20,000 nt of DNA from Malassezia furfur. Lineage: Eukaryota. The DNA lies in the NCBI GenBank assembly GCA_052055015.1, contig JBQJIT010000012.1. One strand, written 5' to 3'. Positions 1 to 20,000 of this stretch are shown piece by piece (position 1 is the first letter of the stretch; each line of letters starts with the position of its first letter). The notes beneath the pieces were generated by a model. That model saw only the letters and a list, made by a program, of their open reading frames with translations, was not told the origin of the DNA and ran no database searches. The position numbers were made by a program, and so were the translations under genes.

Positions 1-2841
1 GGTCGCCCTCGACCGCCGCACGCAGGCGCAGTAGCGACTCGGGACCCGCAGCAAACTGCGTCTCCACAGCATAGTAGCGCTCCAGCAGCCGCGCGAGCGT
101 CGTGATCTGGAAGTGGCGCAGCGAGCCCGAGCCGTAGGCATCGAGCAGCGTGTAGAGCGGCGTCACATTGGTCTCTAGGTTCATGCGCACCGTCGCGTCC
201 GCCGTGTTGGCCACCGCCAAGTCGAGCTCGGCACGCAGCTGGTCGGCAGGGAAGGTGCCTTGGCCGGGTGCCACGGCGTCAAGCGTCGCACGCAGCGTGT
301 CCTCCAGGCGGCCGGGCAGGCGGCCGTGCAGGCTCGCGAGGATTTGGAGCACCTGGTAGTACGGCAGCTGCGGGTCCGACATGGTCATCATCAGCTCGTT
401 GACGCTCTCCGGAACGCGCTCCTGCTCGTCGTACCCGTCCAGCACCGACTCAAGAACGCGCAGCGCGGCCTCAAAGCGCTGGTGCGGCTTCGAGCCGTGG
501 ATCTCCGGCAGGCCGTAGTCGGGCAGGCGCCCGTCGAACGGCACCGCACGCTGGATCTTGCTGGCGTCGTCCACGGTGAGCACACCGAGCAGGTCACCGG
601 GGTTGAGCGACACGCCAGGCGTCTTGACAAAGGTGATCAGGCCGTCTTCTTGCGCGAGGAGCGGCAGATACATCTTCATCACCTCAATCTCCGCAATCGT
701 CTGGCCCGCTGTGACGTGGTCGCCACTCTCCACCAGCAGCCGGACGAGCTTTCCGGGCGACGGGCTGCAGATCTGCGTCGGGTCGTTCTCCTCCTCGATC
801 ACGCACGTGCGCCCATCGATGGTGAGGCGCGTCTGACCGACCTCGTCGAGCCAGTACGTGGGGTACGACTTGCCGGCCAGGCCGATCAGCAGACCTCCGT
901 CCGACAGCGTGTGCAGCGACACGCGCGTCACACCGCCGTTCAGCTCAAGCGTCCAGTGGCCCGGCGACGCACGCGTCGCGGTGAAGCGGTACTTGTGGTT
1001 CTCGTAGATGAACTCCACTGGGAACGTGATCCGGATCGTATTGCGCGGTGGCACCTGGCCACGGTGCAAAATGCGCTTAAACTCTTCGACGCACTCGCTC
1101 GCCTGTGTATGCGCCTTGATCATCGCGCCGCAAATCACCGCGAGGTCGCGCGGCGGACGCTCGGCGGTAACCTGCTCCTGGATCAGCCCATCGAGCCAAC
1201 CGGTGGTAATACGGTTTTCAGCAAAGGCCTCCATCTCAAGCAGCATGATGAGGTACTCGACCGTGGTCCGGAACTCGCCACGGATCGAAATCTCTTTCAG
1301 ACTGAAGACCATGTGCTTGCGCGCCTCTTCACGGTCCTTGCCGTACGCAAAGATGTGACCGAATTGCGAGTCGGCATACTCGTGCAGCGCACCACTGGTG
1401 CTCACGCTAAAGTAGCCCCACGTCGACGTGCTCGAGCGGAAGTTGAGCTCGGACAGGGAACCCACGCCGGGCTTGAAGCCCGTGTCAGGGTTCTCAGCGG
1501 TAATACGACACGCAATGACGTGGCCGTGCGGCTGCGGCTCGCGCTGCTCAGCGGTGCGCAGCGCGGGGTTGTTCTCGTCAAAGTCGATCGACGTCGTGCC
1601 CTCCATCTCAAGGCCATACAGCCGGCGGATCTCGGCAATACGGTTCAGCGGGATGCCCATGGCAATCTGCAGCTGCGTCGCGGGAATGTTGACGTCGGTC
1701 ACCATCTCAGTGGTGGGGTGTTCGACTTGCAAGCGGGGGTTCAGCTCAAGGAATGCAAACTCGTCCGTGTCCGGCGAATAAAGCCACTCCACCGTACCAG
1801 CGGAGACGTAACCCACCAGCTTCGCAAGGCGCACCGCAGCTTGCTCCATCTGCTTGCGGGCAAGGGGCGGAGCCACCGTCACGGGTGCCTCCTCAATGAT
1901 CTTTTGGTGACGGCGCTGCACGGAGCAGTCGCGGCCGAACAGGCTAATCGCATTGCCGTACTGGTCGGCAATCAGCTGCACCTCCAAATGCCGTGCCTGG
2001 CCGGCAAGCTTCATGATGAAGATGGGCGAGCCAGGAACCTCACCAACAGCGGCATGGTAGAGCTGCGAGAATTGCTCGGGCGCCATACACTTGCGAATGC
2101 CCTTACCACCACCGCCCTCGCTCGCCTTGATCATCACGGGGAAGCCAATTTTGATGGCACAGTTGAGACCCTCCTCGGCGGAGTGCACACACGCACGCTG
2201 GTACACATCGTCCGACACGGTCAGGTACCCTTCCTTGCCGACCATTGTCTCCTTGATCCCGGTGCCCGACCACTGCAGGCACGGCACGTCAGCGTGCTGC
2301 GCGACGATCGTCGACGAAATTTTGTCGCCCAGCGACCGCATCGCCGAGCCGGGCGGACCGATAAAGAGGATGCGCGGCTCCAGACGCGCAAGCGACTCAG
2401 GCAGCCGGGGGTTTTCGGACGCATGGCCCCTGTCGTCAGTGGGTGTCGAACGTACCATCCTGCCCACACCGCATGCACACCGGCGCGTTCGGCAACGTCG
2501 ACAATCAGCTCGACGTTTGCGTAGTTGTTGCCGTTCGGGCCGCCAGGCACTTCGACGTAGTTGTCTGCCATCCGAATGTACTCTGCATTCACGCGAAGGT
2601 CTTCAGGCGTGGCCATCACGGTGAACTGGATGGCGCGATCGTCGCCAAACGTCTGATACGCCCATTTGCGCACCGAACGGATCTCTTTCACGGCTGCAAT
2701 ACCGTTATTGCAAATGAGGATTTTCGTGATGACACTGTGACCACCGTGCGAGCGCACAAATTCAGTCACCATGCCCGGCGGGGCGTCGCGGAGCGTGGTC
2801 CCACCATAAAAATGCTCATCGACTTTTGGAAGCTCGGTCAT
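1..2841 (-). CDS. ACC1: Acetyl-CoA carboxylase, N-terminal part (biotin carboxylase + BCCP); runs off the left edge. Exons 2841-2456 and 2429-<1
   Basis: [51 protein letters not shown]. Removing the 26-nt intron 2430-2455 restores VWAGW|GHASENP. Biotin-attachment motif [10 protein letters not shown] near 660-690 is in the same frame. Confidence 0.97.
2430..2455 (-). other. Spliceosomal micro-intron, 26 nt (ACC1)
   Basis: GTACGTTCGACACCCACTGACGACAG; removal restores WAGWGHASE. Confidence 0.92.
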
Positions 2842-3403
2842 TTTCACAGAAAAGGCACGAGTTGGGGATGCTGGGTGTAGCACCTTGCGCCTCCTCGTGT
2901 ATTTCCAGCGCGTCTAGACACGGTTCTGCTTCTGGGGATATGATCCACTGCACGACGAAACCGCAGCCCAGAAGACGCCAAACCGGCTCGACTCAACAAT
3001 GTTAGGAAGACCCTATGTTCGTGCGCGCGCGCCGCCTGTCACCGCCGAAAATAGCTTACGTGAATATTCCGGCGCCAACAGGGGCTTCACGGCCGACAAT
3101 CCAGGCCCAGCAAATCGGAGTTCCGGATATCGGACGCGCCGCCTCGCCGCCCCCGCTCAATGTGACCAATCACTGGGGTAGAATTGGCCTCCCCGGAACC
3201 AGGGGTCACAGCGGGCGCCAGCCATGACCATACGCGGTCTCGAAAAAGCCAGTGCATACTACAGGTGTATTCGACATGCGCGTCGCGCCTTGGCAGGTAC
3301 ACAACGTCGGCGTACCCACAGGGACTATCCAACAGGCGCGCAGTGCCCAATTGCCCGTGAACACGCAGTAGATATTCGTCGATACGAAGCTTTTTAGCCC
3401 GAC

Positions 3404-4487
3404 TTAGTGCTTGCCAGCGTTCTTCGGTGGGTCGTACACAATCTTGCGGTTCATGATCGGCGACCACTTGAAACGCTTGGTCCACACGGCCAGAGCAAAC
3501 ATGCTCGAAAGAAGGATGATGGCACGGAAACCAGCGCGCTTGCGTTGGTCCTGCTCGGGCTCCGAAGCCCAGTGCCTGAACGGTCAGTCGAGTGCGGGCA
3601 ACGTACAAGAAGGTGACGACGTCCTTGGCCATCTGGCTCGTCGTAGCCGGAGTACCGTCGGGGTATTCCACAATACCGTCAAACAGGACACGCGCCATGG
3701 CAATCTGGGTGCCCGGGAAGAACGGGTTGTAGTTGAGACCCTCCTGGACGTTGAAGCCCGCAGGCGGGTCGCAGTAGCCGGTAAGCAGCGAGAAGACGTA
3801 GTCAGCACCACCGTGGCGAGCCTTGATGATCAGACTCAGGTCCGGCGGCAGAGCACCAGCGTTCGCAGAACGCGCGGCCTCCTCGTTGGGGTAGGGGCTC
3901 GGCAAATAGTCCGCAAGCTTACCAGGGCGCTGGAACATGTCACCATCGTCGTTCGGGCCGTCGGTGTATTCCACCTCGGAAGCCATGTCCTTGGCCTCGT
4001 CCACGGTGTGCGACACACCAACCAGGTTGCGCCAGGCAATGCGCTGCAGCGAGTGACAAGTCGCACACACCTCCTGGTACACCTGGAAGCCACGGCGGAT
4101 CGACATGTGGTCGTAAGTGTCAAACCAGCCAAGCGACGACCAGCGGTACGCAGGCGGGTGCAGGCCCTCCTCAGCAGGGCTGCTGGCGCTCAGCGAGTCC
4201 ACGAAGGGAAGCTCGCCGTACACCTGCTGATACCAGACCACCGAGCCGACAGCGACGGCGGTCGCGGCAATCGCCGAGGTGCGCGAAGTAAGCGCCGACT
4301 GCAGGATAAGCGTGCGCTTCGCATACGTACCGAAACCTTCGACTCAGCGCGAGTGGAAGCGAAACGAACCTGCGCGGTCAGCATTCCATCCGGCACCCTC
4401 GTATCAACGTACAGGCTGCGCGGGAGCCGCCTTGAACAGCGAGCGGGCCGCAACGGCACGGGCAGAAGAAGAGAACAGCTGCGCCAT
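3404..4487 (-). CDS. CYT1: Mitochondrial cytochrome c1, ~325 aa. Exons 4487-4413, 4369-4331, 4298-3607, 3575-3404
   Basis: Heme motif [32 protein letters not shown]-terminal [11 protein letters not shown] + TM + [16 protein letters not shown]-terminal presequence [19 protein letters not shown]. Three GTACGT..CAG introns (43, 32, 31 nt) restore the frame. Confidence 0.96.
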
Positions 4488-4687
4488 ATTACAGTTAAGG
4501 TGCACGAGCAAGATACTTGGGGCTGGCGCTCCGCGTAATTGCCTTCACCTCAATGGGTATGGATACAGTAAAACACGGGTCTCGCAAATTTCGGCCATTG
4601 CCCTCACTCCCACGGCTTCTTCGCCCGACTCGGTTTTCGCCAACCAGTCCAGCACGCGCCGATTTCCCATCGGCCGGTACGGCTGGA

Positions 4688-4694
4688 CCAATCA
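4688..4694 (+). promoter_or_regulatory. CCAATCA box (HAP complex candidate) in the CYT1/ABZ2 divergent promoter
   Basis: GACCAATCAG ~200 nt upstream of the CYT1 ATG. CYT1 is a known HAP target in yeast. Confidence 0.4.
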
Positions 4695-4785
4695 GCGCAC
4701 CAGCATTTCTAGGCGAGCCACGCACCGGAAGCGACCGGAAAGCGTGTGGAGGCCACGTGGAAGTCCTGACGCGAAGCGGCACACC

Positions 4786-5643
4786 ATGCCGAGCGTGCAA
4801 GAGCCAGTGCCGGGCGAGGCGTTTACGAGCGTGCGGTGCTTGCGCGACGCAGCACCGACAGCGTGTTCGGCAGACATACTCCTTCCGGATGCACTGAGGG
4901 GACAGGGCCGCGAGGCATCCGCCTCGTCGGATGACGCGCGCATCCTGCAGCACCCTCTGGCCGCGCACGTCCCTCTTTGGACCGCGCACGTCCATCGCCT
5001 CGTCCAGTCATCCACGCAGCTTGCCCAGCTCTTCCCAGAGCTGTGGGGGCATACTGTGTGGAGTGTAGAGACCATCCTCACGTCTGACGCCGTTGCTCAG
5101 CTCTGGGAGCACGTCCAAACCATCCAGGGCACCGATACAGTGCAGCTCCGCGCCAGTCTCCGCCTTGCACAGGACGGCTCGTCTCGCGCAGTGGTGGCCG
5201 CATTTCCGCTCGAGAGTGTGGAGCCGGTCCCTGTGCGGCTCGATACCCAGCCGACTTCGCTCCAGAGGACGACCATCGCGCTCAAAACGGACCTGCGCGC
5301 AGAGTACGACACCAGTCGGCAGCGCGTGCATGCTGACCTTGCGGGCAAGCTCCCGAATACATGCTTCGACGCCTTGCTGTGGAAGGAAGGCTCCTCGGAG
5401 CGCGAGCGTTGGCTCACTGAGGCAAGCATTGCCAACATCGTGCTTCACGTGCCGGGTCAGGGATGGTTTACCCCGCCTTTTGACGGCCTCTTGCCGGGTT
5501 TGCTTGTCCAGGAGCTGGTGCGCAGCGGTCGCGTACAGCAGCAGCCACTTGCGGTGGATACGGTACGTGCACAGCTCGCGTCTGGCGCGCAGCTGTGGCT
5601 CGGAAATGCGGTCCGGGGACTATTTCCGGTGGTATGGGAGTAG
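4786..5643 (+). CDS. PLP-dependent aminotransferase class IV family protein, probably 4-amino-4-deoxychorismate lyase (ABZ2-like), 285 aa
   Basis: Motifs FTSVR, LWTAHVHRL, LKTDLRAEYD (candidate PLP lysine), DALLW, LTEASIANI, WFTPP..GLLPG, LGNAVRG match the fold-type IV / fungal Abz2 pattern. ATG at 4786 is in ACACCATG context. Confidence 0.75.
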   Translation: MPSVQEPVPGEAFTSVRCLRDAAPTACSADILLPDALRGQGREASASSDDARILQHPLAAHVPLWTAHVHRLVQSSTQLAQLFPELWGHTVWSVETILTSDAVAQLWEHVQTIQGTDTVQLRASLRLAQDGSSRAVVAAFPLESVEPVPVRLDTQPTSLQRTTIALKTDLRAEYDTSRQRVHADLAGKLPNTCFDALLWKEGSSERERWLTEASIANIVLHVPGQGWFTPPFDGLLPGLLVQELVRSGRVQQQPLAVDTVRAQLASGAQLWLGNAVRGLFPVVWE

Positions 5644-7976
5644 CTATTGTACATAGGCGTCCGCACGCAGCAGTGTTCCCACCTGCTTGCTCAGCGCCTG
5701 GCCAATCTTGCGCCGCGCAACGTATACGTCGTCATCAATGACTGCACTAAGGAAGTCGTCCGCAGCGCCGCCCGTTTGGGCCGCGTATGTGCGCCAGGCG
5801 CGATGCAGCGAAAGCGGCGTCGGCCAGCGTTGTACGATTTCCTGTGCCTTTTCAGGCGAAAGGCGGCGGATGCATAAGAGCATCTTGGTCCAGACATCTT
5901 GCAGCGTGTTGGCTGCGCTGCCTTTGCCGTGCAGTGCCTGGAAGGTGTGGTAAGACGTGTGAAAAGGGGTATGTGACTGCTGCGCGCGTAGATGGCTCTG
6001 CAGCGTATCGTAGTGTTCACGATCGATCATTTCGTCGCGGATCACATGCAGCGGCTGGTGGGTATACATCTCGTGCAGGAGCCGGTTCACGTTGGCAAGG
6101 AAATCGGCGGTGCCTTCGTTGTTCGCCGAACGATGCACAAAAAAACCGTCGATGATCTGGGTGCTGCTCAACGCAGTTTGGATTCGGTCGCCGTGGCGTT
6201 GCACAAGGTTTGCAACGTCCACGTCCTCAATCAAGTAGAAGATCCGGCCCAACCCAGATGCGCGGAGACGTTGCTGCGTAAGAGACGCGTCGTACCTTTT
6301 GGTCATGCCAGCGCCCATCAAAGATACTCGACGTCAGGTCGTCCAGTCGCTTGCGCTCCACGACGGCATCTAGTACCACCTCCTGAACTAAATTCCATGG
6401 CTGTGCGTCTGATGGCGGCAGGTTCGGTTTAGGACGGGCGACCCAGAGAATGTCGCCTAGCTCCAGCGCACGCAACTCGCACTCCACGCCACGCCGGCGC
6501 ATCGCCTCCTCAAACGTGACGCGGCGACCGGCGTCGGGGCCATGATGGGATCTGGAACGCACTTCCCGATGGTCCATGATCATGTGGATGGTATACGAGT
6601 CCGGCGGAAGACAAATGCACCCGAGCGGCGTCCGCGCAGACTCCGGCGCAGGGGGCACCAGCTCGGCGCCGTGCACACTGGGGCTCGAGCTGATCAGCGT
6701 AATGGACGACTGCCGGTTCGAAAGCGGCGAGTGGACCACCATGGGACTGGAGCGCGACCGGTCTTGAATAATTGGAGACGAGTCGATGAGCGAGATGCTG
6801 ATGCGAACCGGTTCCATCGGCTGTGCAGAAGACACATGTTCGCTCGCAACGTAAACGTCGTCTTGGGACGAGCGCACCAGGTCCACAACGACATGTTGGG
6901 TAGGCTCCAAATCCGGCTCCACCTCGATCCCATCGTCCACCGAGAGACCCGATTGCGTCGACGTGGTTCGTTTCCAACTACGCCGCTCAGGCCCCTCGAG
7001 AAAGTGCTTGCGCGGCGGTAAGTAGAGCCGGTTCATGGGGCGCTCCGGTCCAGCGGACGTTTCCGGGGTCGTCTGCAAAACAGCTGGTGTCGGAGCAGGT
7101 GGAAGCTGCGAGGGTAGGTCCGGGGGTCGATCGTGCGAACGCCGTGGCTGCGACGCGGTGTCGCCAGACAGGGGATCGGCCGATGGAGTGGACGTAGTCG
7201 TGCCCGCCGCCGTCACTTCTGCCGCAGGGTTCGTCACGCCCTCGGCCTCAGCAAGTACGCGTGCAACACTCAAGCCTTGCTCGCTCAGGTAAAACAGGGG
7301 AGGGTTGCCGGAGCGGTAGACGTACGCCTTGTCGATCAAGGTCTTCATGGCGCTCCATGCCGTGATATACGACCGCCGTGATTGCGTAAATTGGCTTCCA
7401 GAGCCACGGTGGGACAGAGAAGAGGGAGCGGATGTACGCGACCCACCGCCAGGCACCGTATAGTCACTGTCGCAAAAGGGCTGGGCCCGTGCGATCAGTT
7501 CGGCCTTGCCAACCTGTGCATCATCCTGCTGGTCTTCGAGGACCTTGGTAAAAATGCCCACAAGAATGCCATGCGCGCCAGAACGTGGCTCTGGAACATA
7601 TTCCTTGCGTGGCCTTCGCGCCCGCGTCGTCGGCGCGGCTCGTGGGGGTCGTGAAGCAGCCTCGCTCGACCGCGACATCGATGCTGCATGAGCGGCGGCA
7701 CGTACGTAGTTCTGGAATAGAGTGACCATGCTCCATGCACCATTGTGCGTACTCCTTTTCGAGTCGCTTGGCAATCGAGTCGCCAATGCCTGCGAGGCGC
7801 ACCGTTTCGCGAGGGTGTATGAACGGCTCCGTGGCAGCGGCTAAGGAACGGTGCGCCTTTTGGTAGGCAGAGGCCGCTTTCAATCCCTTGGAGCGCGCAT
7901 CCTCGGCCCAGGTCCGCAAGAATTCAAGCCATACACAGTTGGGATGCACGTCGGCACCATGTTCGTGCGCCTGCAT
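5644..7976 (-). CDS. MUS81: Crossover junction endonuclease Mus81, ~762 aa. Exons 7976-7706, 7683-6296, 6273-5644
   Basis: N-terminal HhH (AYQKAHRSL..LAGIGDSIAKRL), winged-helix region (YVPEPRSGAHGIL..TAWSAMKTLIDK), ERCC4 nuclease (DHREVR, LELGDILWV, VERKRLDDLTSSIFDGRWHDQK|QRLRASGL..YLIE), C-terminal HhH. Two 22-nt introns join the three ORF-track pieces. Confidence 0.95.
6274..6295 (-). other. Spliceosomal micro-intron, 22 nt (MUS81 intron 2)
   Basis: GTACGACGCGTCTCTTACGCAG; removal restores the conserved DGRxxxQKxRL..SG. Confidence 0.9.
7684..7705 (-). other. Spliceosomal micro-intron, 22 nt (MUS81 intron 1)
   Basis: GTACGTGCCGCCGCTCATGCAG; joins two frames. The next two AGs (41 and 45 nt) are out of frame. 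Confidence 0.8.
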
Positions 7977-7994
7977 ACCCTAAAGGAGAGACCA

Positions 7995-8007
7995 ACGCGC
8001 GACGCGT
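7995..8007. promoter_or_regulatory. Tandem MCB-like element ACGCGCGACGCGT upstream of MUS81
   Basis: Contains a perfect ACGCGT at 8002-8007 plus an adjacent CGCG, 20-30 nt from the ATG of a DNA-repair gene. Confidence 0.35.
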
Positions 8008-8245
8008 TCTGTCACGTGCCGCTCGACGACTTGGTGCGGCGGCTTCGCACGACGGTGGTAGTGCAAGGATGCGGTTCAGCCAGACGGCTGCGCGGAGAGG
8101 ATTGATCGTGTGCAAGGCTTTTATTTTAGATAGCACTGATATCACCAAGACCAAGCTTGGCGTGCTCTCTACCTAGAAAGATATGTGCCAACAAGAGCAT
8201 AGAGAGTTTTCCGTGTGCATCAGCAGCAGTCTCTGCAAAACACAA

Positions 8246-8837
8246 TTAGTACAGAGGAATGAAGCGGCTCCTGTGGTTAGCACATCGCTGCAGGCGAGTA
8301 CGTACGCATCCTTGCCCAGGCTACCCTTGCCGTGGCGCGTGGGGATGTAGCTGATAGCCAGCTCACCAAGGTAGTGGCCGGTCATCTCGGGCTTGATCTC
8401 AACGGTGGTGAAGACCTGTACGTTAGCAAACATGTTCTGGCGCTTCAGTACAAACCTTGCCGTTGTAGATACCAATGACGGAGCCGATCATCTCGGGGAC
8501 CACAATCATGTTACGCAGGTGCGTGCGGACCACCGCGGGCTTCTCGTTAGGGGGAGTCTCCTTCTTCGCCTTGCGCAGCTTCTTGATCAGAGCCATGGGG
8601 CGGCGGGTGAGACCACGCTGGAAGCGCCTGCGGGCGCGAGCGTGGACGAGCTTGACAAAGTCCTCGTTGGGCATGTCCAGCAGCTGGTCGAGCTCCACGC
8701 CGCGGTACTGGAACTTCTTGAAGGTCCTCTTGCGCTTCAGCTCAGCGGCGGCAGCAGCGTCGTAGTCATCCCTGTGTATGGTCAGTATACTGTTCACAAG
8801 ACGAGGCGCGGGTCGGCCTGCGCTCCGGTACGCACAT
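8246..8837 (-). CDS. RPS15: 40S ribosomal protein S15 (uS19), ~150 aa. Exons 8837-8836, 8771-8456, 8415-8306, 8270-8246
   Basis: [68 protein letters not shown]-terminal SRFIPL. Introns of 64, 40 and 35 nt. Confidence 0.95.
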
Positions 8838-8902
8838 CTTCGGTGAGTCTGTGGATAGGAGGAGACGACTCGCGCGGACGGTGCAAAGGGAGGGGCACTC
8901 CC

Positions 8903-8938
8903 TCACGTGCCGACTATAGTTCTGGTATAATCACGTGA
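8903..8938. promoter_or_regulatory. Two TCACGTG E-boxes (Cbf1-type) in the RPS15/RPP2 bidirectional promoter
   Basis: TCACGTGC at 8903-8910 and TCACGTGA at 8931-8938. Confidence 0.5.
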
Positions 8939-9092
8939 CGAGCCACAGCTTCGCAGACTGCGGCGTGCGAGGCGAAAGTGGGCGCGCGGCGCGGCAAGGC
9001 TCATCTTTAGACCTCAAGTCTTCCTGTGGGACCAAAGCGTACAACGCGGATTTGTGGTACACCTTCTTCAACAACCTAAAAACCTGTAAACA

Positions 9093-9419
9093 ATGAAGCT
9101 CATTGCTGCCTACCTGCTGCTTTCGCTCGCGAACGAGAACCCCTCGGCTGAGGACATCACCAAGCTCCTCAGCACCGTCGGCATCGAGGCCGACTCGGAG
9201 CGCCTTGAGAAGCTGATGTCGGAGCTCAGCGGCAAGGACATCAACGCCCTCATTGCAGAGGGTCAGGAGAAGCTGGCCTCGGTCCCCTCGGGTGGCGCTG
9301 TGGCTGCTGCGCCCGCCGCCGGTGGCGCCGCTGCTGGCGAGGCTCCCAAGGAGGAGGAGAAGAAGGAGGAGGAGAAGGAGGAGTCCGACGAGGACATGGG
9401 CTTCGGTCTCTTCGACTAA
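9093..9419 (+). CDS. RPP2: 60S acidic ribosomal protein P2, 108 aa, intronless
   Basis: [10 protein letters not shown] start, Ala/Gly hinge, canonical C-terminus [13 protein letters not shown]. Confidence 0.97.
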
Positions 9420-9542
9420 ACGTGTCGTCCTCTGTGGCGTATTTGCGCTACGCAAAACGCTCTCCTGATCAAAAATACGGCGCGCTCATAGTCGGTATGT
9501 CCGGTAGTTCGGTCTGCTATGTGTTCGCGACGCATACGTGCG

Positions 9543-11463
9543 CTACTTGTCCTCGTCGCCATCGACGAAGATGTCGCGGTACTTAAGCAGGATGGTTTCG
9601 ATCGCCTTGCACTGGTGGCTCATGTCCTGCAGCTGCACGGGCCCACCACTGCTCGCGCCGGCCTCGGAGGCGGTGACATTGTGAGGCGGACTGAGCAGCG
9701 TCGGCCCAAACACGATGGCGAGATTGTGGGCGCTCATCTGGTTGATGCCCTCTTGGGCACGCACGCGGTCCAGGTGCGCCATAAGGAACCGCAGGGTGGC
9801 ATAGTTGGCGTCGGGCAGTTCGTTGACCTGCTCGTGCAGCCGAATCTGGCGCAAATAGTCGTCTTCCACTTTGGCGGCCTCGATAAAGGCCGGGTATAAT
9901 GCATAGGTCAGCAACGGCTCGGGCAGCTCGCGGAACCAGAGCTTGAGGCAGCCCGCGACGATGTTGATGTCGCTCAGTGCCTCATCGTTCATCAGGTCCA
10001 CCGACGACCAGTCCGCATCAAACTTCGCCTTGAGCTTCTGCACGCGCGACGTGGTGCCAGACAGGCGGTAGATACCCATGTTCTGGATGCCGACGCGCTC
10101 GATGGCGTCCGCACAGATCTCCAGGATGGGCGGTACCTCGACATTGTCGCGCACCAGCTGCGTCGTGAGGTCCACGCCAAAGATGGGGTGGCCTCCTCCG
10201 CCCGGCGCCCCGTCGTCGCCCGAGTTGGGCGCACTGCCGCGGCCCACGAGCGTGGTCTGGTACATGAGGTTCGTGAGCGTCGTCTCGTCGTACGGGTTGT
10301 GCCGGCGGGGCCCGTGGAAGTCGCTTGCGTGCGCCAACTCGTAGCTCTGGAGGAACTCGCGGAAGTCGGCCGTGTTGTCGATTGCGGCCGCGGCGTCGCG
10401 AAGGCCCGTGGTGGACGACTTTTCGTTCAAAGGATTGACGGCCATCCCATCGCTCAGCACGGTACTCTCGTAGAGGAACGCGAAACGAATCAGCTGGAAC
10501 TGCAAGCCGGTGTCGATCTCCGAAAGCGTGTCGCGCAGCGAGCGGAGGATGTGGGGCAGGTGTTGCTGGAAGTACTCCTGGCGCAACGACTGGGCCCCCT
10601 GGGCCTCGTTCCGGAGCGCTTCGTGTGCGTTGGTCTTCTTCACCCGGAACTCTTCCTCGTGCCGGAGGATCTGCTGGGGGTTTTTGTTCTTGAACAGGCC
10701 GCCCTTGGTGAAGGACATGCCGAGCGTCCGCTTGTTGGCTGCCGTGCCGATGGACATGTCGGCGGCACGCGCCGTGTCGCCCTGCTTCACGAGGAACACG
10801 CGCTCCAAATCCTCTGCGGCAATGTCGAAACGGATCCGCGCGCGGTCGACGTTCGCCTCGGCGTCGGTGAGGCTCTTTTCCAGACGGCGGCCCATATCGA
10901 CGTGCTGCCGGCGCGCACGCTCCGCATCGCGCACCAGTACCGCCAGGTCATCGCTGATCGCCGTGAGCTTCGTCGCGAAACGGTAGCGGTTCTCGCTGAG
11001 CGCTTCTTGCGCATGGAGCATGCTCTTCCAGTTGGTGCCGTACGTGCCGGAGCGCGCCTCGTGCGAGGAGTACTCGGACGCGTACGTTTTGGTGAGCTTG
11101 CTCAGCCCATGTGCATACTCTTCCTCGAGCGCTGCACGCTTCTTGACAAACGCCGAGGCCTCACGCGCCGATTCGATGCTCTGACGCAGGCGCTCGTCCA
11201 TCAGCGACAGACCACACTGGGTGAGCGGGGCGTACGTACGTCCATTGCGCACAACTGGCGCATCATTGCATCGTCGATCACCGAAGAGCTAATCAGGCCC
11301 GGTGCGGCGGTAGTGTTGGGCGCATCGGAGGGCATAATGGTGCGGTCGCCGGCCTCTGCGGTGCCGCCCGCATAGGTCTTGGCTCCCGTCTGCAGCGGCG
11401 CGACAGAGATATCTCCAGGGGCCTGTGTGAGCATGCGTGCGTGCGTACGTTGTTCGCCGACAT
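9543..11463 (-). CDS. F-BAR (FCH) + RhoGAP protein, Rgd1-like, ~623 aa. Exons 11463-11449, 11422-11240, 11216-9543
   Basis: F-BAR start (D|CGLSLMDERLRQSIESAREASAFVKKRAALEEEY). RhoGAP motifs IFGVDL, GIYRLSG (arginine finger), LKLWFRELPEPL, NQMSAHNLAIVFGPTL. Introns of 26 and 23 nt link to ATG TCG GCG AAC AAC. Confidence 0.9.
11217..11239 (-). other. Spliceosomal micro-intron, 23 nt (RhoGAP intron 2)
   Basis: GTACGTACGCCCCGCTCACCCAG; joins two ORF frames. Confidence 0.85.
11423..11448 (-). other. Spliceosomal micro-intron, 26 nt (RhoGAP intron 1)
   Basis: GTACGCACGCACGCATGCTCACACAG; links the 15-nt ATG exon in frame. Confidence 0.75.
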
Positions 11464-11718
11464 CAGGGAGAGGGTGCGCGTCGCTCGGGGGATCGCTCAA
11501 ACAAGGCACGGCGCGATCGCCTCGAGTCGCAAGGGCAAGTCGGGCCCCCCACGCTGTGCTTATGTGCCACGTGGAAACAGTGTTGATTATGTGGTGTGGA
11601 GGCGACGCGCGGGGGGGAGCGGCGCGCGACAGCCCTGGCGCTAAGGGGCGGGCGCTGTGGCCCAGGTCGGCAGCTACGTAGGACATCATCACATTCATAC
11701 ATGACCGCGTGCGACGCA

Positions 11719-14266
11719 CTACTTCTTCGCGCGGTGATCGTGAGCCGCGCGGATGTGGGGGATGAGCGAGCGAAGACTCGCGGGCTCGCGCAAAAAGGGA
11801 TGCTCGGCGAGCGTCGCCGCGTCCGGGCGCTTGTCCGCGTCCACCTCCAGACACACCGAGAGAAAGTCGCGGAAAGTGGAAGAGAGCTTTTCGGGATTCT
11901 GCAGCTTGGGCGTACCGTTGGTCGCGATCAGGTACAGTGCACGCAGCGGGTTCTCGTTCAGGTACGGCGGCTCGCCTTCGACCATCTCGATGCACAGGAT
12001 GCCCAGGCTCCAGATGTCGACGCGCGCGCCGTACTCCTTCCGCGTGACCACCTCGGGCGCCATCCAGTACGGTGTGCCGACCATGGTGACGCGCTTGGCG
12101 TGCGCCTGGCCAATCTGTGCACAGAAGCCAAAGTCGGCTGGGTCAGTAGTGGCAACGTACTCAGCTTGATGTTCCCGTTCATGCTCATTAGCACATTGTC
12201 GCTCTTGATGTCGCGGTGGATTACGCCGTGTGTGTGCAGATGGTGCAGCCCGGTAACGCACTCCTTTGTCACCGCGGCGATCTGCGCCTCGGAGAGGATG
12301 GAGTTGAGCACGACGTCGGTGAGCGGACCGCCCTCCATGTACTCCATGACGACCCACAACTCGCCGTCGTTGAGGAACGCGTTGAGGAAATTGACAATGT
12401 TCGGATGCCGCGACTGCTTCATCACCTCGATCTCGTTCACGATCAAGTCCTTCTTGGGGGCTGCTGCTCCAGCACCATCTGCTTGATCGCCACGAGCTGC
12501 TCGGACCCAATGCTCTTCGCCGTAAACACACCGCCGGACGCGCCTTGCCCGATCTTGACCAGGTCCTTGAACATGCGCGTGGGGTTTCCGGGCATACACA
12601 CCGCCTGCAGACGCATCATGACCTGCGCATCGCTTACCTTGTTGCGCTGCGTGCGCCGCCGCGGCACCGTGCCGCTCGATCCGAGCGGCGGGCGCACCTC
12701 GGCGTCGGCCTTGGTCGCAACGCCCGCACGCTGCGACTGCGTGCGCACAAGCTGCGCCGCAGACGTCGTGGAGGCATCCGCGGGGCGCTCCGCGGCAGGG
12801 TTGTAGGTATGGGACGTGACGCCCTCGACGAGCGGCTGCGTCGCTGACGACTTGGCTGGATGCAGCAGCTCGGGCGTACGGAACGACGGCGAGACACGCC
12901 CAGGCGCGGGCGCGGGCGCAGGCACCGCTGGCACACCCTGCGTCGCCACCGACGTGGGTGTGTGCCGGACGTCGGGGATCGCACCAGGCGCCGCCACGGG
13001 CGGCACCGTGGGGGGCACCGACGGGGCGCCCGGCAGCGGCGCACCTGCACCGCCCACGGCGCCCGGGGCTATTCGCTGCGGCGCAGGGCCTGGCACGGGC
13101 GGCGCAGGACGTGTCGCGGCGGGCACCGCCGCCACATGCGCCGAGGCGTCCCACTCTGGCTCGTACGGCTGCGACGACCCCGAGTCGTCCTCGACGTTCG
13201 CACGGAACTTGGTCCACACGTCGTCGTTCTCGCCGCCACTCGCGGTGTCGTGGGCATTGTCCTGGTAGAACTGAACAATGTCCATCACCGCCTGGGGATG
13301 CTGCTCCACCTCTTGGCGCGAGATGCCCGACTGGTGTAGAAGCTGCTGCCACTCGCGCGGAAGCCCCGTAAACTCGCCCGTGTGTGCATTGAAGCCGACG
13401 TGCGTCAGGTGCACGGGGTCGTACGGCGTAGAGATCTCCGGCCGCCGCTCTGTGCTGCCAAACACGTCGCTGACCGAATGTACAAGGCCGCCGAGCATGC
13501 TCTTTAGCGACGAGCGGCTCCCTTCGCGCGTCCGTGTGCGCGTGGGCGTATCAGGCGTCGCCGAGCTCGGCGCACTCTTGGGCGATCCCGGGATATCGGA
13601 GCGCACCGAGCTCGCGATCGACACATTTGACATCGACGTCGGCAGCGGCGCTGCACGGTCCGCGACGCGCGGCTTGGGCGGCGTCGGCGGAGGCATGCCT
13701 TCCGGCGGAGAGTCGGCATAGGACAGTGTCGCACCTTTGAGGGGATGCGGCGCCGCATACGGCTGCGCCGCGTACGCCTGCGTCGGCAGTGCCAGGGACC
13801 CCAGGCTCTGCGAGCGCGTGTGCTGCTGCGCGGCCTGCATCGCCTGCATCCGCTGCATCGCGTCAGACGTGCCATGCGGCGGGTTTCCAACCGCTGCGCC
13901 AGGTGCCGTGGGCGTGTACGCGGCCTGCGCGCTGTCGGGCACGTTGGGCGCCGTGCGGGGCAACACCGGCGCCGAGTCGTGTCGGTTCCACGGCCGCGAC
14001 AGAGTCTGCGGTTGCACCACGCGCTGCGTCGAGAACAACGACACATCAGGGACATTCACGAGGCCGGGGTGCATACTGAGTCCGCCGTCGGCGGCGTAGG
14101 CGCCGACCTCGTAGGTCAGCGCCGTACGCGACGGGTCGGAAGGGAGCGGCCGCGCGCCCCCTTCCGCAGCCCGCGCCGCCTGGGCACTATTGGATCCGGA
14201 CGCGTACTGCCCGGAGAATGGTTCCGGGTCTGGACGCGCATACGCGCTCCCCATATAGTGGGCCAT
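11719..14266 (-). CDS. STE20: STE20/PAK family kinase (CRIB + kinase, no PH domain seen), ~840 aa. 23-nt intron 12138-12160; apparent frameshift at 12456-12460; start codon uncertain
   Basis: [37 protein letters not shown]. Kinase motifs [62 protein letters not shown]. Confidence 0.9.
12138..12160 (-). other. Spliceosomal micro-intron, 23 nt (STE20)
   Basis: GTACGTTGCCACTACTGACCCAG; removal restores the invariant IKLTDFG. Confidence 0.93.
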
Positions 14267-14359
14267 ATGCCACGCGCACAGACGACCTCGTGAGAAAGGG
14301 GAAAAGAGGCACTGCCGAGTGTTTTGGCCCAACACTTAAGTGGAGGTGCGTGTCCCCGC

Positions 14360-15677
14360 CTAGAACAGGGGGCGGAACTGTGGGGGTCAGTGCCCAGCGG
14401 GAGTTCCACCTACCTTTTTGCGTGCGCCGTCCGGCTGGGTCGCAGGGAGTGCATCGTCTTGCGACACGCTGGGGGGACTCGGAGATGAAAAAAACAACGC
14501 CGAGGGGTGCTCGTCGCGGTTCCCACCTGCCCCAATTGGGGTCGGCTGCACCAGCAGCTGCGACAGCGGCACCTGGGAGGGCGGGCGGTGCGATGCCGCC
14601 GGCGTCGCCTCGACTTTGACGCGCGGCGCACCAAGCAGGTCTTCGTCGTCGCTCGAGCGCGTCACGTCGGCGGCAGGCGCAGGCGGCGAAGCGGCGCGCG
14701 GCGGCATCGGCGCTCCATCGGGCGATGCGGCGCGTGGTTTGGGAGCGGGCGCCGCGCCTTCGAGCGCGTCGCCGGTGGTCGCAAGGATGAACTCGGCAGA
14801 GAGCGCCTCGGACACGTGCAGCCGTACAAACAGCGGATCGCCGCCGTACCCGAACGCCAGCGACGCGGACGACCCCAACTGCTCGGCGACGTGGATCGCG
14901 GCGCGAAACTCCCATAGTGAGAACTGTACCATACACTCGTCCGTGACGTCGTATTCGAGCATTTCGGCGAGCGGGAGCCGCACCTCGCTCTGGATCGAGT
15001 TGCGGACGTGGTCTTTGGGGTCCGGCGGCGCGTTGAGCCGGCTGTGCATCGTGCACGCGTGCGGTGTGCAGTGCAGCGAGCACTCGCCCGTCTTGCCACT
15101 GTTCATAAAGTGCTCCATCCATTCCTTGGCGGTTTCCGGGCGCACGCTCAGCGCAAAAGGGGGATGGGCATCGATCGAGGGGTATAAGCCCGGGCGGTCC
15201 TCGTAGGTAAGGCGGTGCCGTTTTTGAACGCCTGTGTGAGTCGAACGTGCGTACCGTGCTCGCACTCGATGAGGATCTCGAGACGCGCCGGCTCAGCAAG
15301 TGCATCGAGCACGAAGGTGCACCGGAGCATCGACGCGCGCATCCGCAACGCGGCAAGGACGGTCTGCGCGGTGAGGAAGGCGACGTACGCGGATATGAAT
15401 TTGGCACTCGACATCCTCGTGTGCAAGGCGGATGCGCTCAAAGAAGCGCTCGTGCAAGACAAACAGGCCGTACGCGGAGCTCGACGCGTTCACGGCAGAG
15501 AGCTGGAGCTGCGTGAGCTGGCAGCACGTACGCGGAGGTGGTCATCGTGTGGGTCGCGCACGCAACTAATCCAGCAGTGGTCTCCAAAGCGGTACAGGCA
15601 CGCGAGCGCGTAGATGAGCGCTGCGTGAGCCGTGCGCACGTACCGCGCACCTTGTCCCCCCCGACGGTCCACTCCAT
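14360..15677 (-). CDS. RAD9: 9-1-1 checkpoint clamp subunit Rad9 (Rad9A/Ddc1 family), ~395 aa. Exons 15677-15644, 15620-15532, 15508-15389, 15363-15255, 15231-14414, 14377-14360
   Basis: After removing five introns (23, 23, 25, 23, 36 nt): [65 protein letters not shown], and a low-complexity tail ending KK|FRPLF (resembles human RAD9A KKFRSLF). Confidence 0.85.
15232..15643 (-). other. Cluster of four RAD9 micro-introns: 15621-15643 (23 nt), 15509-15531 (23), 15364-15388 (25), 15232-15254 (23)
   Basis: All start GTACG and have CTCAC 4-6 nt before the intron end. Together they give one continuous Rad9 frame. Confidence 0.85.
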
Positions 15678-15723: not shown

Positions 15724-17823
15724 ATGTCGCAGCTGCTCAACGAGACGTTTGCGCGGAAGAATGAGCAGAACCAGGCGGTGTTTGTGACGTTTGTCACCGC
15801 CGGGTTCCCCGGCAAAGAGGATACGCCCGATATTTTGCTCGCGCTCGAGCAGGGCGGCGCAGATGTGATCGAGGTCGGTGTGCCGTTCAGCGACCCGCAG
15901 GCGGACGGCCCTGCGATCCAAGACAGCAACAAGATTGCGCTTACGAATGGCGTGGGCTATGCGCAGTGCCTGGCGTACGTGCGTGAGGCGCGCGCGCGGG
16001 GGCTCAAGGTGCCCGTGATCTTTATGGGCTACTACAACCCCATTATGGCCTACGGCGAGGAGCGTGCGGTGCGCGAGGCACGCGAGGCGGGCGTGAACGG
16101 GTTCATCGTGGTGGACCTGCCGCCTGAGGAGGCCGAGACGTTCCTTGCGGTGTGCCGCAAGGAGCAGATGGCGTTTGTGCCGCTCATTGCGCCGACCACG
16201 GACCTGGAGCGCGTGCGGTATTTGTCGACGCTGGCCGACTCGTTCATGTACGTTGTGTCGAAGCTCGGCACAACGGGCGCGTCCGCGAGTGTGTCTTCGT
16301 CGCTGAGCGACATGATGCCCAAGATCCGCACGGCGACCAGTGCGCCGCTCGCGGTGGGCTTTGGTGTGTCAACGCGCGACCACTTCATCGAGGTGGGCGA
16401 GCTCGCCGACGGTGTGGTGATCGGGAGCAAGCTTGTGGAGCGCCTTAAGCATGCGCAGCCTGCGACGACGGCAGGGCGCGTCGAGGCCGCGCGCACGTTC
16501 TGTGAGGAGATCACCGGCATCAAGGAGGGCGGCCTTGCGCGGCGGCACCCGCTGCGGCGCGACGCGACCACGACGCCGGCCGACACCAACGGCGTGGTCA
16601 CCAAAAACATCGAGGATCGGCACCCCCGTTTTGGCGCGTTCGGCGGGCAGTACATCCCCGAGGCGCTGTTCCAGTGCCACCTGGAGCTGGAACGTGCGTA
16701 CGACCAGGCGCGCAACGACCCCAAGTTCTGGGAAGAGTTCCGCAGCTACTACAACTACATTGGGCGCCCGAGTGAGCTGTACTATGCCGAGCGCCTGACG
16801 CAGATGGCGGGCGGGGCCAAGATCTGGCTCAAGCGCGAGGACCTCAACCACACGGGCAGCCACAAGATCAACAACGCAATTGGCCAGGCGCTGCTCGCCA
16901 AGCGCCTCGGCAAGACGCGCATCATTGCCGAGACGGGCGCGGGGCAGCACGGTGTCGCGACGGCCACGGCGTGCGCCAAGCTCGGCCTGGAGTGTGTGGT
17001 GTACATGGGCGCCGAAGACGTGCGCCGCCAGTCGCTCAACGCGTTCCGCATGAAGATGCTCGGCGCCAAGGTGGTGCCGGTGGAGAGCGGGAGCAAGACG
17101 CTCAAGGACGCGATCAACGAGGCGAACCGCGACTGGGTGACCAACATTACCAACACGCACTACCTCGTCGGCTCGGCGATCGGTCCGCACCCCTTCCCGT
17201 CGCTCGTGCGGGACCTGCAGTCGGTGATCGGCCGCGAGGCCAAGGAGCAGCTGCGCGCCGAGACGGGCCGCCTGCCCGAGGCGGTCGTCGCGTGCGTCGG
17301 CGGCGGGAGCAACGCCATCGGCCTCTTCCATCCGTTTGTGGAGGATGCGTCGGTGCGCCTCGTCGGCGTCGAGGCCGGCGGGCACGGCGTCGACACCGAG
17401 CAGCACTCGGCGACGCTCGCGCGCGGGCGGCCAGGCGTGCTGCACGGCGTGCGCACCTACCTGCTCCAGGACGCCGACGGGCAGGTCACCGAGACCCACT
17501 CGATCAGCGCGGGGCTCGACTACCCCGGCGTGGGCCCCGAGCACGCCTACCTCAAGGACAGCGGGCGTGCCGAGTACGTCGTCGCGACCGACGACCAGGC
17601 GCTGCAGGGCTTCCGCTGGCTCACGGAGCGCGAGGGCATCATCCCGGCGCTCGAGTCGTCGCACGCCATCTACCAGGCGGTGCAGCTCGCCAAGACGCTC
17701 CCGAGCGATGCGCAGATTATCGTGTCGCTCAGTGGGCGCGGCGACAAGGACGTGGAGCAGATCGCGCGCGGCCTCACCGAGCAGGGCTGGGGCGACCGCA
17801 TCGGCTGGCACTTGTCCGTGTAA
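15724..17823 (+). CDS. TRP5: Bifunctional tryptophan synthase (alpha-beta fusion), 699 aa, intronless
   Basis: Alpha: [32 protein letters not shown]. Beta: [16 protein letters not shown] (PLP lysine), [34 protein letters not shown]. Confidence 0.97.
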
Positions 17824-17832
17824 GTACGTAGA

Positions 17833-20000
17833 CTACGAACTCGGCATCCGGTCGAGCATCTCGAGCAGTGCCGCATGGCGCGCCGGCCCGCCGGCCTTGT
17901 AGATGAGATAGTCGCGCAGCGGGTCGCGAATCGACGGCTGCTTCTGGACCACCTGCTCGAGCTGTGCGCGCGGCAGCTGCAGCAGCGCGCCGAACGACGT
18001 GGGCGCCGTGAGGCTCGCGCAGAGCGCAAACCCATCCCAGAGGCGCGGCTCGGTCCAGATCTCCTTTTTGGCGAGGCGCGAGAGCAGGCTCGTGCTCACG
18101 TACGACGCCAGCGAGCGGAACGACTTGATGGCGAGGATCGCCGTGCGCATAAACAGCACCGGGATGCGCTCCTCGTCCACGAGGCGGTTCAGCACGGCCA
18201 TCATCACCTCGTTCCGGAAGATGTCGGTCATGCCAAAGCACAGCTGGATCGCCACCACCGCTGCCTTGAGCCCAATCGCCTCGCCGTCGACGTGGAGCAG
18301 CACGAGCAGGTCGACGGGGGTGAGCACGGCGGTGGAAGGCGGCGCAGGCGCCACGAGCGTGCGGAAGAGCGTGCTGATCGCCGCCTTGTGCTCGTCGCTC
18401 GGGTCGCGCAGCACGCCCACGACACGTGGCAGCGCACGCAGTGCATCCTCCCGCGCAAGTTCGGGGAGCAGCGGCAAAAGCAGCTCGATCGGCAGCTCGC
18501 GCTCCTCCACCAGGTACAGCACGAGCGACGCCAGCGCACGCGTGTGGCCCTTGTCGATCAGGATGCGCACCATCGCGTGCACCAGTGGGTCGGCGCCGCG
18601 CGGCGCATGCCGCAGCACGTCGAGCAGCGCCGTGTTGTTTGGCCCCACGGCGCGCGCGACGGGCGTGATGTGCTTGTTCATCGCGGCCTGCACGGCGGGC
18701 GTGACGCCTGGGTATATCTCGACGACCTCGGTAAAGATGGACGGCTGCTTGACGCTCAGCACGAGCGCTAGCTCCATCAGGCGCAGCACGTCCTGCTCGG
18801 TCGTCTCGCTCGCCGTGTCGCCGACGTCGGTGGTGTCGACGGTGGGCGCCTCGTCGAGGCGCGGCGCAAAGGCCGCCCCCGTCTCGTCGTCGCCCTCGCC
18901 CTCGCCGGCGCCATCGTTGGGCTCGGCGGCCTCGTCGAGCTGCTGCGCACCAACCTGCTCGAGCAGCTGCAGCGAGTTCTTCGCAAACTCGAGCACGCGC
19001 TCGGTCAGCGCGCCGCGCTGCAGCACCCACGTGCGCGCCGTGACGATCGCCTTGCCGCGCACGAGGCGCTCGTGGTGCCGCGTGAGCTGCAGCACCTTGT
19101 CGCACACGGCGACGCGCAGCGGCGGGCGCGCCGCACTGATGTCCCGCAGCAGCGCAAAGCCCTCGTTGAGCGTCGCCTTGTCGAGGCACAGCGCATAGAG
19201 GCGGTCGAGCACCGCGTCAGGCAGCTCGGGCAGCTCCTCGAGGAAGGTGTGCAGCGCCGCCTCGTCGACATGCGCACGCACCTGCGCCTCGTCGACATGC
19301 GCACGCACCTGCGCCTCGAGCACACGGTCGAGCCACGTGTCGTAGTAGCGCGCCGTGTCGTCCGCCTTGTGCCGCGCACGGTCGCACGTCCACTCCTCCG
19401 CAAGCCACTGCTGCGCGATCGGCCGGCGCGCCGCAAAGTCGCGTGACACAAACTCGAGCAGCAGCGTGCGCACGCGGTGCGCCTGCTCGGCGAGCGCGGG
19501 CGGCGCCGTGAGCGGCGCTCCGTCGCGCGCCGACGTGTCGAGTCCGCGCGTCGCCAGCCGCGTGATCAGCGTGATCCACAGCGCCGCGTGGCCCTCGGAG
19601 ATGGACGCGGCGCCCTGGCGCATGAGCTGGCTACCCTGGTCGCAGATGCGCGACACCGAGTCGATGATGAGCGCATGCGCCTCGCGCTGCTCGAGCGGCA
19701 CCGGCGCGGGCAGCTCAAAGTGCTCCAGGCTCTGCAAGGGCGCACGCTCCCCCTCGTCCTCCTCCGCGTCCGCGCGCGACTCGGCCGGCGCGAGGCGCGC
19801 AAGGTCGTCGTCGCCCACGTCCATCTTGAGCGGGTCGGCCGGGGCGCGCTCCGCGTCGCTCTGGGCGTAGGCGGCGATCGCCGCCTTGAGCCGCGCCTCG
19901 GGCACGCTCTGCAGCCCGACGATGATCGCATCCACGACGCGGTCGACGGGCAGGCGCGCCACGTCCTCAGCCGTGGGGCCCGCGGGCGTCGCGCGGCGGG
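17833..20000 (-). CDS. Symplekin/Pta1-like mRNA 3'-end processing scaffold, C-terminal part; 5' end lies beyond the window
   Basis: Frame open from the window edge to TAG at 17835-17833. Symplekin_C-like motifs LTPVDLLVLLH, AIQLCF, IPVLFMRTAILA, LLSRLAKKEIW..PRLWDGF..CA, LLQLP. Confidence 0.85.
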   Translation of the reverse strand, partial: RRATPAGPTAEDVARLPVDRVVDAIIVGLQSVPEARLKAAIAAYAQSDAERAPADPLKMDVGDDDLARLAPAESRADAEEDEGERAPLQSLEHFELPAPVPLEQREAHALIIDSVSRICDQGSQLMRQGAASISEGHAALWITLITRLATRGLDTSARDGAPLTAPPALAEQAHRVRTLLLEFVSRDFAARRPIAQQWLAEEWTCDRARHKADDTARYYDTWLDRVLEAQVRAHVDEAQVRAHVDEAALHTFLEELPELPDAVLDRLYALCLDKATLNEGFALLRDISAARPPLRVAVCDKVLQLTRHHERLVRGKAIVTARTWVLQRGALTERVLEFAKNSLQLLEQVGAQQLDEAAEPNDGAGEGEGDDETGAAFAPRLDEAPTVDTTDVGDTASETTEQDVLRLMELALVLSVKQPSIFTEVVEIYPGVTPAVQAAMNKHITPVARAVGPNNTALLDVLRHAPRGADPLVHAMVRILIDKGHTRALASLVLYLVEERELPIELLLPLLPELAREDALRALPRVVGVLRDPSDEHKAAISTLFRTLVAPAPPSTAVLTPVDLLVLLHVDGEAIGLKAAVVAIQLCFGMTDIFRNEVMMAVLNRLVDEERIPVLFMRTAILAIKSFRSLASYVSTSLLSRLAKKEIWTEPRLWDGFALCASLTAPTSFGALLQLPRAQLEQVVQKQPSIRDPLRDYLIYKAGGPARHAALLEMLDRMPSS
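19258..19318. repeat. Perfect 27-bp tandem duplication within the symplekin-like CDS (AQVRAHVDE x2)
   Basis: ctcgtcgacatgcgcacgcacctgcgc occurs at 19261-19287 and 19288-19314, with partial flanking copies. Confidence 0.95.

Follow-up and report, generated by a model that had tools for sequence, protein, structure and literature searches.

Intron lengths have been reported for several species of Malassezia. In the curated annotation of M. sympodialis, 5350 introns have a mean length of 30 base pairs (bp), and 5271 of them (99%) are supported by RNA sequencing (PMC5389616). Introns of M. restricta have an average of 37.2 nucleotides (nt) and a median of 30 nt (PMC9241646), and for the annotation of this species the minimum intron length was set to 20 and 15 (PMC6473144). 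A review mentions the "very short introns" of Malassezia genes (PMC7426719), and an older annotation of M. globosa gives an average intron of 76-79 nt (PMC4634964). In this study, the introns of a 20,000-nt stretch of contig JBQJIT010000012.1 (the window, hereafter) were analyzed. Gene models were rebuilt from the sequence, gene by gene, and 17 GT..AG introns were recovered, with lengths of 22, 22, 23 (five introns), 25, 26, 26, 31, 32, 35, 36, 40, 43, and 64 nt. Based on their splice signals and on comparison with proteins and related contigs, they are very probably spliceosomal introns of the ordinary U2 type (GT-AG), constitutively removed, in a furfur-group Malassezia, with the extreme shortness typical of the genus.

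The introns lie in seven genes, all on the minus strand: one each in ACC1 and a PAK/STE20 kinase gene, two in MUS81 (both of 22 nt) and in an F-BAR RhoGAP gene, three in cytochrome c1 (CYT1) and in RPS15 (uS19), and five in RAD9. Their median length is 26 nt, the mean 30.4 nt, the mode 23 nt, and the minimum 22 nt; ten of the 17 measure 22-26 nt. With these segments removed, all gene models are stop-free, the only exception being the kinase gene, which has a further frame break elsewhere. A sequence-only reading of the window had proposed spliceosomal-type introns of 22-64 nt, and this is borne out by splice signals, frame restoration, and comparative support for the junctions. Its 17 lengths, the ten introns of 22-26 nt, the median of 26 nt, and the count of 14 GTACG donors were all reproduced by the rebuilt models. 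Likewise, the junctions 6274-6295 (22 nt, MUS81) and 12138-12160 (23 nt, STE20 kinase) that it named are correct, the span it gave (2430-15643) runs from the low end of the first intron to the high end of the last, and the smallest intron of the sample, 22 nt, agrees with the floor it placed near that value. The mean of 30.4 nt is close to the 30 bp of M. sympodialis and the median of 30 nt in M. restricta, and gene prediction both in the window and in M. restricta requires a minimum intron length of 15-20. However, the window belongs to another species, of the furfur group, and the spacing of signals described below (17-18 nt plus 5 nt) is not given in the accessible parts of the M. sympodialis and M. 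restricta accounts, where lengths appear as means, medians, and a cumulative plot.

All 17 introns start with GT and end with AG. The donor hexamers (GTACGT in 11 introns, GTACGC in two, and GTACGA, GTGCGT, GTTTGT, and GTAGGT in one each) fit a GTRNGT-like consensus. A YTNAY box was found near the 3' end of every intron (CTCAC and CTGAC six times each, CTAAC twice, CTTAC, CTTAT, and CTCAT once each), and every acceptor is YAG. The A of this box is the presumed branch point, and 5-10 nt separate it from the 3' end. Among the ten smallest introns (22-26 nt), it is placed 17-21 nt from the 5' site and 5-8 nt from the 3' end, so close that a polypyrimidine tract would not fit. Introns of 22-23 nt are in essence a donor hexamer followed by a 7-8-nt spacer, the branch box (5 nt), and a tail of 4 nt; in this arrangement the branch A is reached after 17-18 nt, and 5 nt remain to the 3' end. 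Such introns would be little more than three signals: a 6-nt 5' site (mostly GTACGT), a YTNAY branch box, and a YAG end. Removal would proceed by conventional U2-type chemistry, and the 3' splice site would be recognized by its closeness to the branch point. U12-type introns are defined by the donor consensus RTATCCTT and a TCCTTAAC-like branch box. This class was rejected; the U12 form is absent from all 17 donors and branch boxes.

The same spacing raises a different possibility, namely that the introns are real but too short for the usual spliceosome and are handled by a distinct miniaturized system, in which, for example, U1 and U2 would not be bound together, the 3' site would be chosen independently of U2AF, or components of the small nuclear ribonucleoproteins would be lost or altered. 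The 17-21 nt to the branch A, the 5-8 nt to the 3' end, and the missing pyrimidine tract of the ten smallest introns speak for it, and it is reasonable to suppose, from these distances, that U1 and U2 would be unable to occupy such introns together. However, the GT, YTNAY, and YAG signals are conventional, and myxozoans and Stentor, with even shorter introns, keep canonical U2-dependent machinery according to a 2026 paper that lists lineages with introns below 30 bp (PMC13644364). Scans with Rfam of the window and four related loci gave no match, and no small nuclear RNA was detected in them; transfer RNAs were not detected either. We consider a distinct machinery unlikely; it is compatible with the ordinary-intron explanation and does not exclude it. 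A narrower form of the same idea, with a similarly low probability, is that in GC-rich Malassezia introns have been compressed to a near-fixed module, with spacing too tight for U1 plus U2, U2AF-independent choice of the 3' site, and perhaps altered early complexes.

In microsporidia and in chlorarachniophyte nucleomorphs, the modal intron length is below 30 nt. Introns of about 25 bp in Paramecium and Nyctotherus and of 15-16 nt in Stentor have been reported. As in these ultra-short systems, the 17 introns of the window are reduced to their splice signals, and a modal length below 30 nt may likewise be shared (the mode of this sample is 23 nt). In contrast to ciliates, intracellular parasites, and relic nuclei, Malassezia is a culturable basidiomycete yeast, and the lengths in the window tail up to 64 nt, a less narrow range than that of Stentor. 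Introns of Cryptococcus neoformans, with a mean of 63 bp (PMC8476143), are likewise of the GT-AG type, several per gene, and short among eukaryotes; however, those of the window are about half as long, and their branch point almost abuts the 3' splice site. The lineages with introns below 30 bp that are listed in the accessible part of the 2026 paper are ciliates, Microsporidia, and Dicyemida; fungi appear there only under the label of Microsporidia, and Malassezia is not mentioned (PMC13644364). In open-access papers and preprints we found no dedicated study of how Malassezia splices its tiny introns, which is a further point in favor of a distinct machinery. The mechanism is thus under-studied, though the phenomenon itself is published.

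The over-representation of the signals bears on whether the frame breaks could be assembly errors or pseudogene lesions. The pattern GTACG N6-36 YTNAY N1-9 YAG has 18 matches in the window against 1.94 +/- 1.45 expected, an excess of about nine times; as many as 18 were never obtained in 200 shuffles. The matches comprise the 14 GTACG introns, an alternative 3' end of one of these, an unused match within a RhoGAP exon, and two that are antisense, at palindromic CGTACG. The match at 10257-10293 in the RhoGAP open reading frame (ORF) was rejected as an intron, since removal of its 37 nt breaks a continuous homologous frame. Errors or lesions would also have to produce the succession of GT, branch box, and YAG in 17 of 17 cases, to leave residue-exact continuity after removal, and to fall where related DNA has introns of different length. 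One true break of this kind is present in the window, at a run of five C (12456-12460) in the kinase gene. As a general explanation, assembly error was rejected on the pattern excess and the continuity tests, and we regard it as highly improbable.

Three comparative tests were applied to the spliceosomal introns: flanking exons were placed on solved structures, spliced models were aligned with homologous proteins, and syntenic Malassezia contigs were compared. Support was obtained for 16 of the 17 junctions, from continuity on structures, gapless alignments with homologues, or syntenic contigs. This comparative evidence makes it almost certain that the introns are real. At sites with residue-exact continuity, or with orthologues that are intronless and colinear, longer alternative junctions were rejected. 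On the structures, the upstream exon of ACC1 stops at residue 149 of chain 5i6i_A and the downstream exon begins at 151, with residue 150 as the split codon. For CYT1, on chain 7rja_D, exon 3 stops at residue 235 and exon 4 begins at 237 (split codon 236). The kinase exons stop at residue 157 and begin at 159 of PAK1 chain 4zlo_A (split codon 158), and the Pkinase profile runs over them from 42 to 140 and then from 140 to 263. In RPS15, exon 2 matches chain 9spj_ZG up to residue 99, and exon 3 continues from 100.

Alignments with homologous proteins gave the following picture. Across MUS81 intron 2, nine of 12 homologues are gapless, one has a 1-residue gap, and two (P0002 and P0003) are without 16-22 conserved residues; the ERCC4 profile matches 2-74 and then 71-139 across the two MUS81 ORFs. 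At MUS81 intron 1, the same Pro is found at the split codon in about seven of 12 homologues, and the sequence beyond is not conserved. RhoGAP intron 2 is spanned without a gap by 11 of 15 homologues, smut fungi and agaricomycetes among them. The M. psittaci RhoGAP protein P0053 has an insertion of eight residues at this site, with V first and Q last, which suggests that a stop-free 24-nt GT..CAG intron has been translated in the model of this relative. For RAD9 intron 1, one of ten homologues (P0034) is gapless over the junction and the other nine are without this N-terminus; for intron 2, five of ten align on both sides, the region just upstream being variable in length. Eight of ten homologues are gapless over each of introns 3 and 4, and the Rad9 profile picks up at position 104 in the ORF downstream of intron 4. 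Removal of RAD9 intron 5 restores a final stretch of eight residues that is identical in three of ten homologues (P0032, P0040, and P0042); another five have differing tails that begin with V, as expected from read-through of the GT.

Syntenic Malassezia-like loci (L001, L003, L004, and L005) supplied the third test; metagenome contigs were scanned with the RhoGAP alignment. The order of genes in the window is common to L001 and L005. Orthologous DNA in both is without the ACC1 intron and colinear across the junction, and the same was found at MUS81 intron 2 (the MUS81-553 site). L005 is intronless and colinear at CYT1 intron 2 (the CYT1-38 site) and at MUS81 intron 1 (the MUS81-90 site), and L001 has introns at both places. 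The intron in the start codon of RPS15 (8772-8837; L001 12326-12417; L005 12994-13115) has the same flanking exon context in three Malassezia lineages. Removal of RPS15 intron 3 adds a short C-terminal tail that is likewise encoded past the orthologous introns of L001, where the intron contains an in-frame stop, and of L005. L001 also has a 23-nt RhoGAP intron (10172-10194) with no counterpart in the window. Precise absence in some lineages and a change in length with conserved flanks in others is the behavior of spliceosomal introns, unlike that of errors or pseudogene lesions. The positions of the introns and the lengths found at shared sites are listed below.

Table 1. Introns of the window, with their signals and the intron lengths (nt) at the same sites in related Malassezia-like loci.
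Gene and intron	Position	Strand	Length (nt)	Donor	Branch box	L001	L005	L004	Remark
ACC1 intron	2430..2455	-	26	GTACGT	CTGAC	none	none		
CYT1 intron 1	4370..4412	-	43	GTACGT	CTGAC	23	between 55 and 85		
CYT1 intron 2	4299..4330	-	32	GTACGT	CTTAT	31	none		
CYT1 intron 3	3576..3606	-	31	GTACGT	CTGAC	25	67		
MUS81 intron 1	7684..7705	-	22	GTACGT	CTCAT	23	none		
MUS81 intron 2	6274..6295	-	22	GTACGA	CTTAC	none	none		
RPS15 (uS19) intron 1	8772..8835	-	64	GTGCGT	CTGAC	88	118		splits the start codon after AT
RPS15 intron 2	8416..8455	-	40	GTTTGT	CTAAC	26	58		
RPS15 intron 3	8271..8305	-	35	GTACGT	CTAAC	36	53		
RhoGAP intron 1	11423..11448	-	26	GTACGC	CTCAC				
RhoGAP intron 2	11217..11239	-	23	GTACGT	CTCAC	24	55	34	
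PAK/STE20 kinase intron	12138..12160	-	23	GTACGT	CTGAC				immediately ahead of the DFG motif
RAD9 intron 1	15621..15643	-	23	GTACGT	CTCAC				
RAD9 intron 2	15509..15531	-	23	GTACGT	CTCAC				
RAD9 intron 3	15364..15388	-	25	GTACGT	CTCAC				
RAD9 intron 4	15232..15254	-	23	GTACGC	CTCAC				
RAD9 intron 5	14378..14413	-	36	GTAGGT	CTGAC				in-frame stop

Several points weigh against the interpretation of all 17 segments as spliced introns. We infer their removal from the mRNA from the comparison of DNA and protein only. Many of the homologous proteins compared are themselves predictions, made by a method that is not known. Sixteen of the 17 lengths are not multiples of three (the exception being the 36-nt intron, which has an in-frame stop), an excess that is biased, the introns having been found by frame restoration. 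Seventeen introns from one 20-kilobase (kb) window are also too few for the length distribution of the whole genome, or a hard floor, to be derived from them. At individual sites, the junction of CYT1 intron 1 falls in a poorly conserved presequence with low alignment scores (44 and 54 of 130). The N-terminus that results from removal of RhoGAP intron 1 is similar in one of 15 homologues only (P0053, annotated in M. psittaci), and L001, L004, and L005 yield no support for this intron.

It is therefore possible that some of the 17 introns are wrongly delimited or unspliced, the weakest being the 26-nt intron of RhoGAP and the 43-nt intron of CYT1, and that a downstream ATG or another 5' exon is used. 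An in-frame downstream ATG is indeed present in RhoGAP exon 2, and the N-terminus ahead of it is conserved in none of the three related loci. However, both introns have full consensus signals. RhoGAP intron 1, placed five codons past an ATG, is the one junction of the 17 for which the basis is splice signals and a single annotated homologue, and it is the least certain of the set. In CYT1, an upstream exon is needed because the main ORF has no ATG ahead of the conserved domain, and the position of the acceptor is kept in L001 and L005, where an intron ends just ahead of the same conserved start of exon 2. Wrong delimitation of some members of the set is, on balance, improbable.

Lengths at shared sites were compared across the related loci. 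Introns of L001 measure 23-36 nt, with one of 88 nt; those of L004 measure about 34-42 nt (two sites), and those of L005 53-118 nt. The GC content is 63% in L001 and in L003, 54% in L005, and 47% in L004, and intron length across the lineages does not simply track it. Intron presence varies as well (at the ACC1, MUS81, CYT1, and RhoGAP sites), and these differences might include recent gains of introns of about 23 nt. Length thus differs within the genus, and the older average of 76-79 nt for M. globosa fits the longer introns of L005. The sequence-only reading had regarded the short introns as partly novel. This did not hold. A like distribution in close relatives, described before, was what that reading itself had named as refuting it, and such a distribution has been published for M. 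sympodialis and M. restricta; L001, too, has introns of 23-36 nt at the same sites. The tiny introns are almost certainly real and are already known for the genus Malassezia, and the window adds no new phenomenon.

The effect of such introns on gene annotation was apparent in public records. The annotated MUS81 proteins of M. furfur and M. brasiliensis are without 16-22 conserved residues at the site of a 22-nt intron. The annotated RAD9 of M. furfur (P0032) reads through several junctions, and at intron 3 it has an insertion and a shifted frame. An annotated "Mus81p" (P0015) is fused to the neighboring uS19 gene. The ORFs called on this contig are fragments in which splicing is not taken into account (P0001, 6230-7729; P0051, 9546-11201). 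It had been suggested from the sequence that gene predictors would mishandle these genes, and the public annotations of relatives together with the unspliced calls confirm it. At tiny introns, Malassezia genes are split or wrongly joined by default or ORF-based gene callers. For this species the minimum intron length in annotation therefore has to be about 15-20 nt, a setting that is already standard in recent Malassezia genome papers.

Eleven recognizable genes were identified in the window by Pfam, and its DNA is nuclear and GC-rich (59-74% per kb). In addition to the seven genes with introns, a symplekin gene is encoded on the minus strand, and genes for a class IV aminotransferase, the acidic ribosomal protein P2, and tryptophan synthase are on the plus strand. 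The top named matches of the MUS81, RAD9, and RhoGAP proteins are from M. furfur, M. brasiliensis, and M. psittaci, with 80-88% identity, and for this reason the organism is assigned, by protein similarity, to the furfur group of Malassezia; the genus had been named correctly in the earlier reading. Among named protein records, none identical to the genes of the window was found.

A few further segments were observed. In the kinase gene (minus strand), the frame break at the five-C run has no splice signals, and the frames on its two sides match consecutive residues of PAK1, so that the break corresponds to one missing or two additional bases. It is most likely a one-base homopolymer error of the assembly, and a real lesion is conceivable. 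A 23-nt GT..AG segment over this break, near 12460, was rejected as an intron; it lacks a branch box, and its removal would take out residues aligned with PAK1. Intron-like GT..branch..AG segments lie upstream of the CYT1 start (4683-4725, minus strand) and upstream of the P2 gene (8978-9010, plus strand), each in a likely 5' untranslated region (UTR); they may be introns of the 5' UTR or may have arisen by chance. At the 3' end of the symplekin gene, an intron-like segment of 36 nt (17805-17840, minus strand) with donor GTTCGT, a CTTAC box, and a CAG end begins 5 nt ahead of the stop of the ORF. If it is spliced, the C-terminus would be altered and would overlap, in antisense orientation, the end of the tryptophan synthase gene.

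As a fungus that grows freely and is amenable to genetics, Malassezia is a little-noticed case of introns near the lower limit of size. The contribution of the window is a clear account of how the signals are spaced. If introns in GC-rich Malassezia have indeed been compressed to a near-fixed module, the genus would offer a culturable, transformable fungal model for the splicing of minimal introns, one that has been overlooked in the literature on ultra-short introns.

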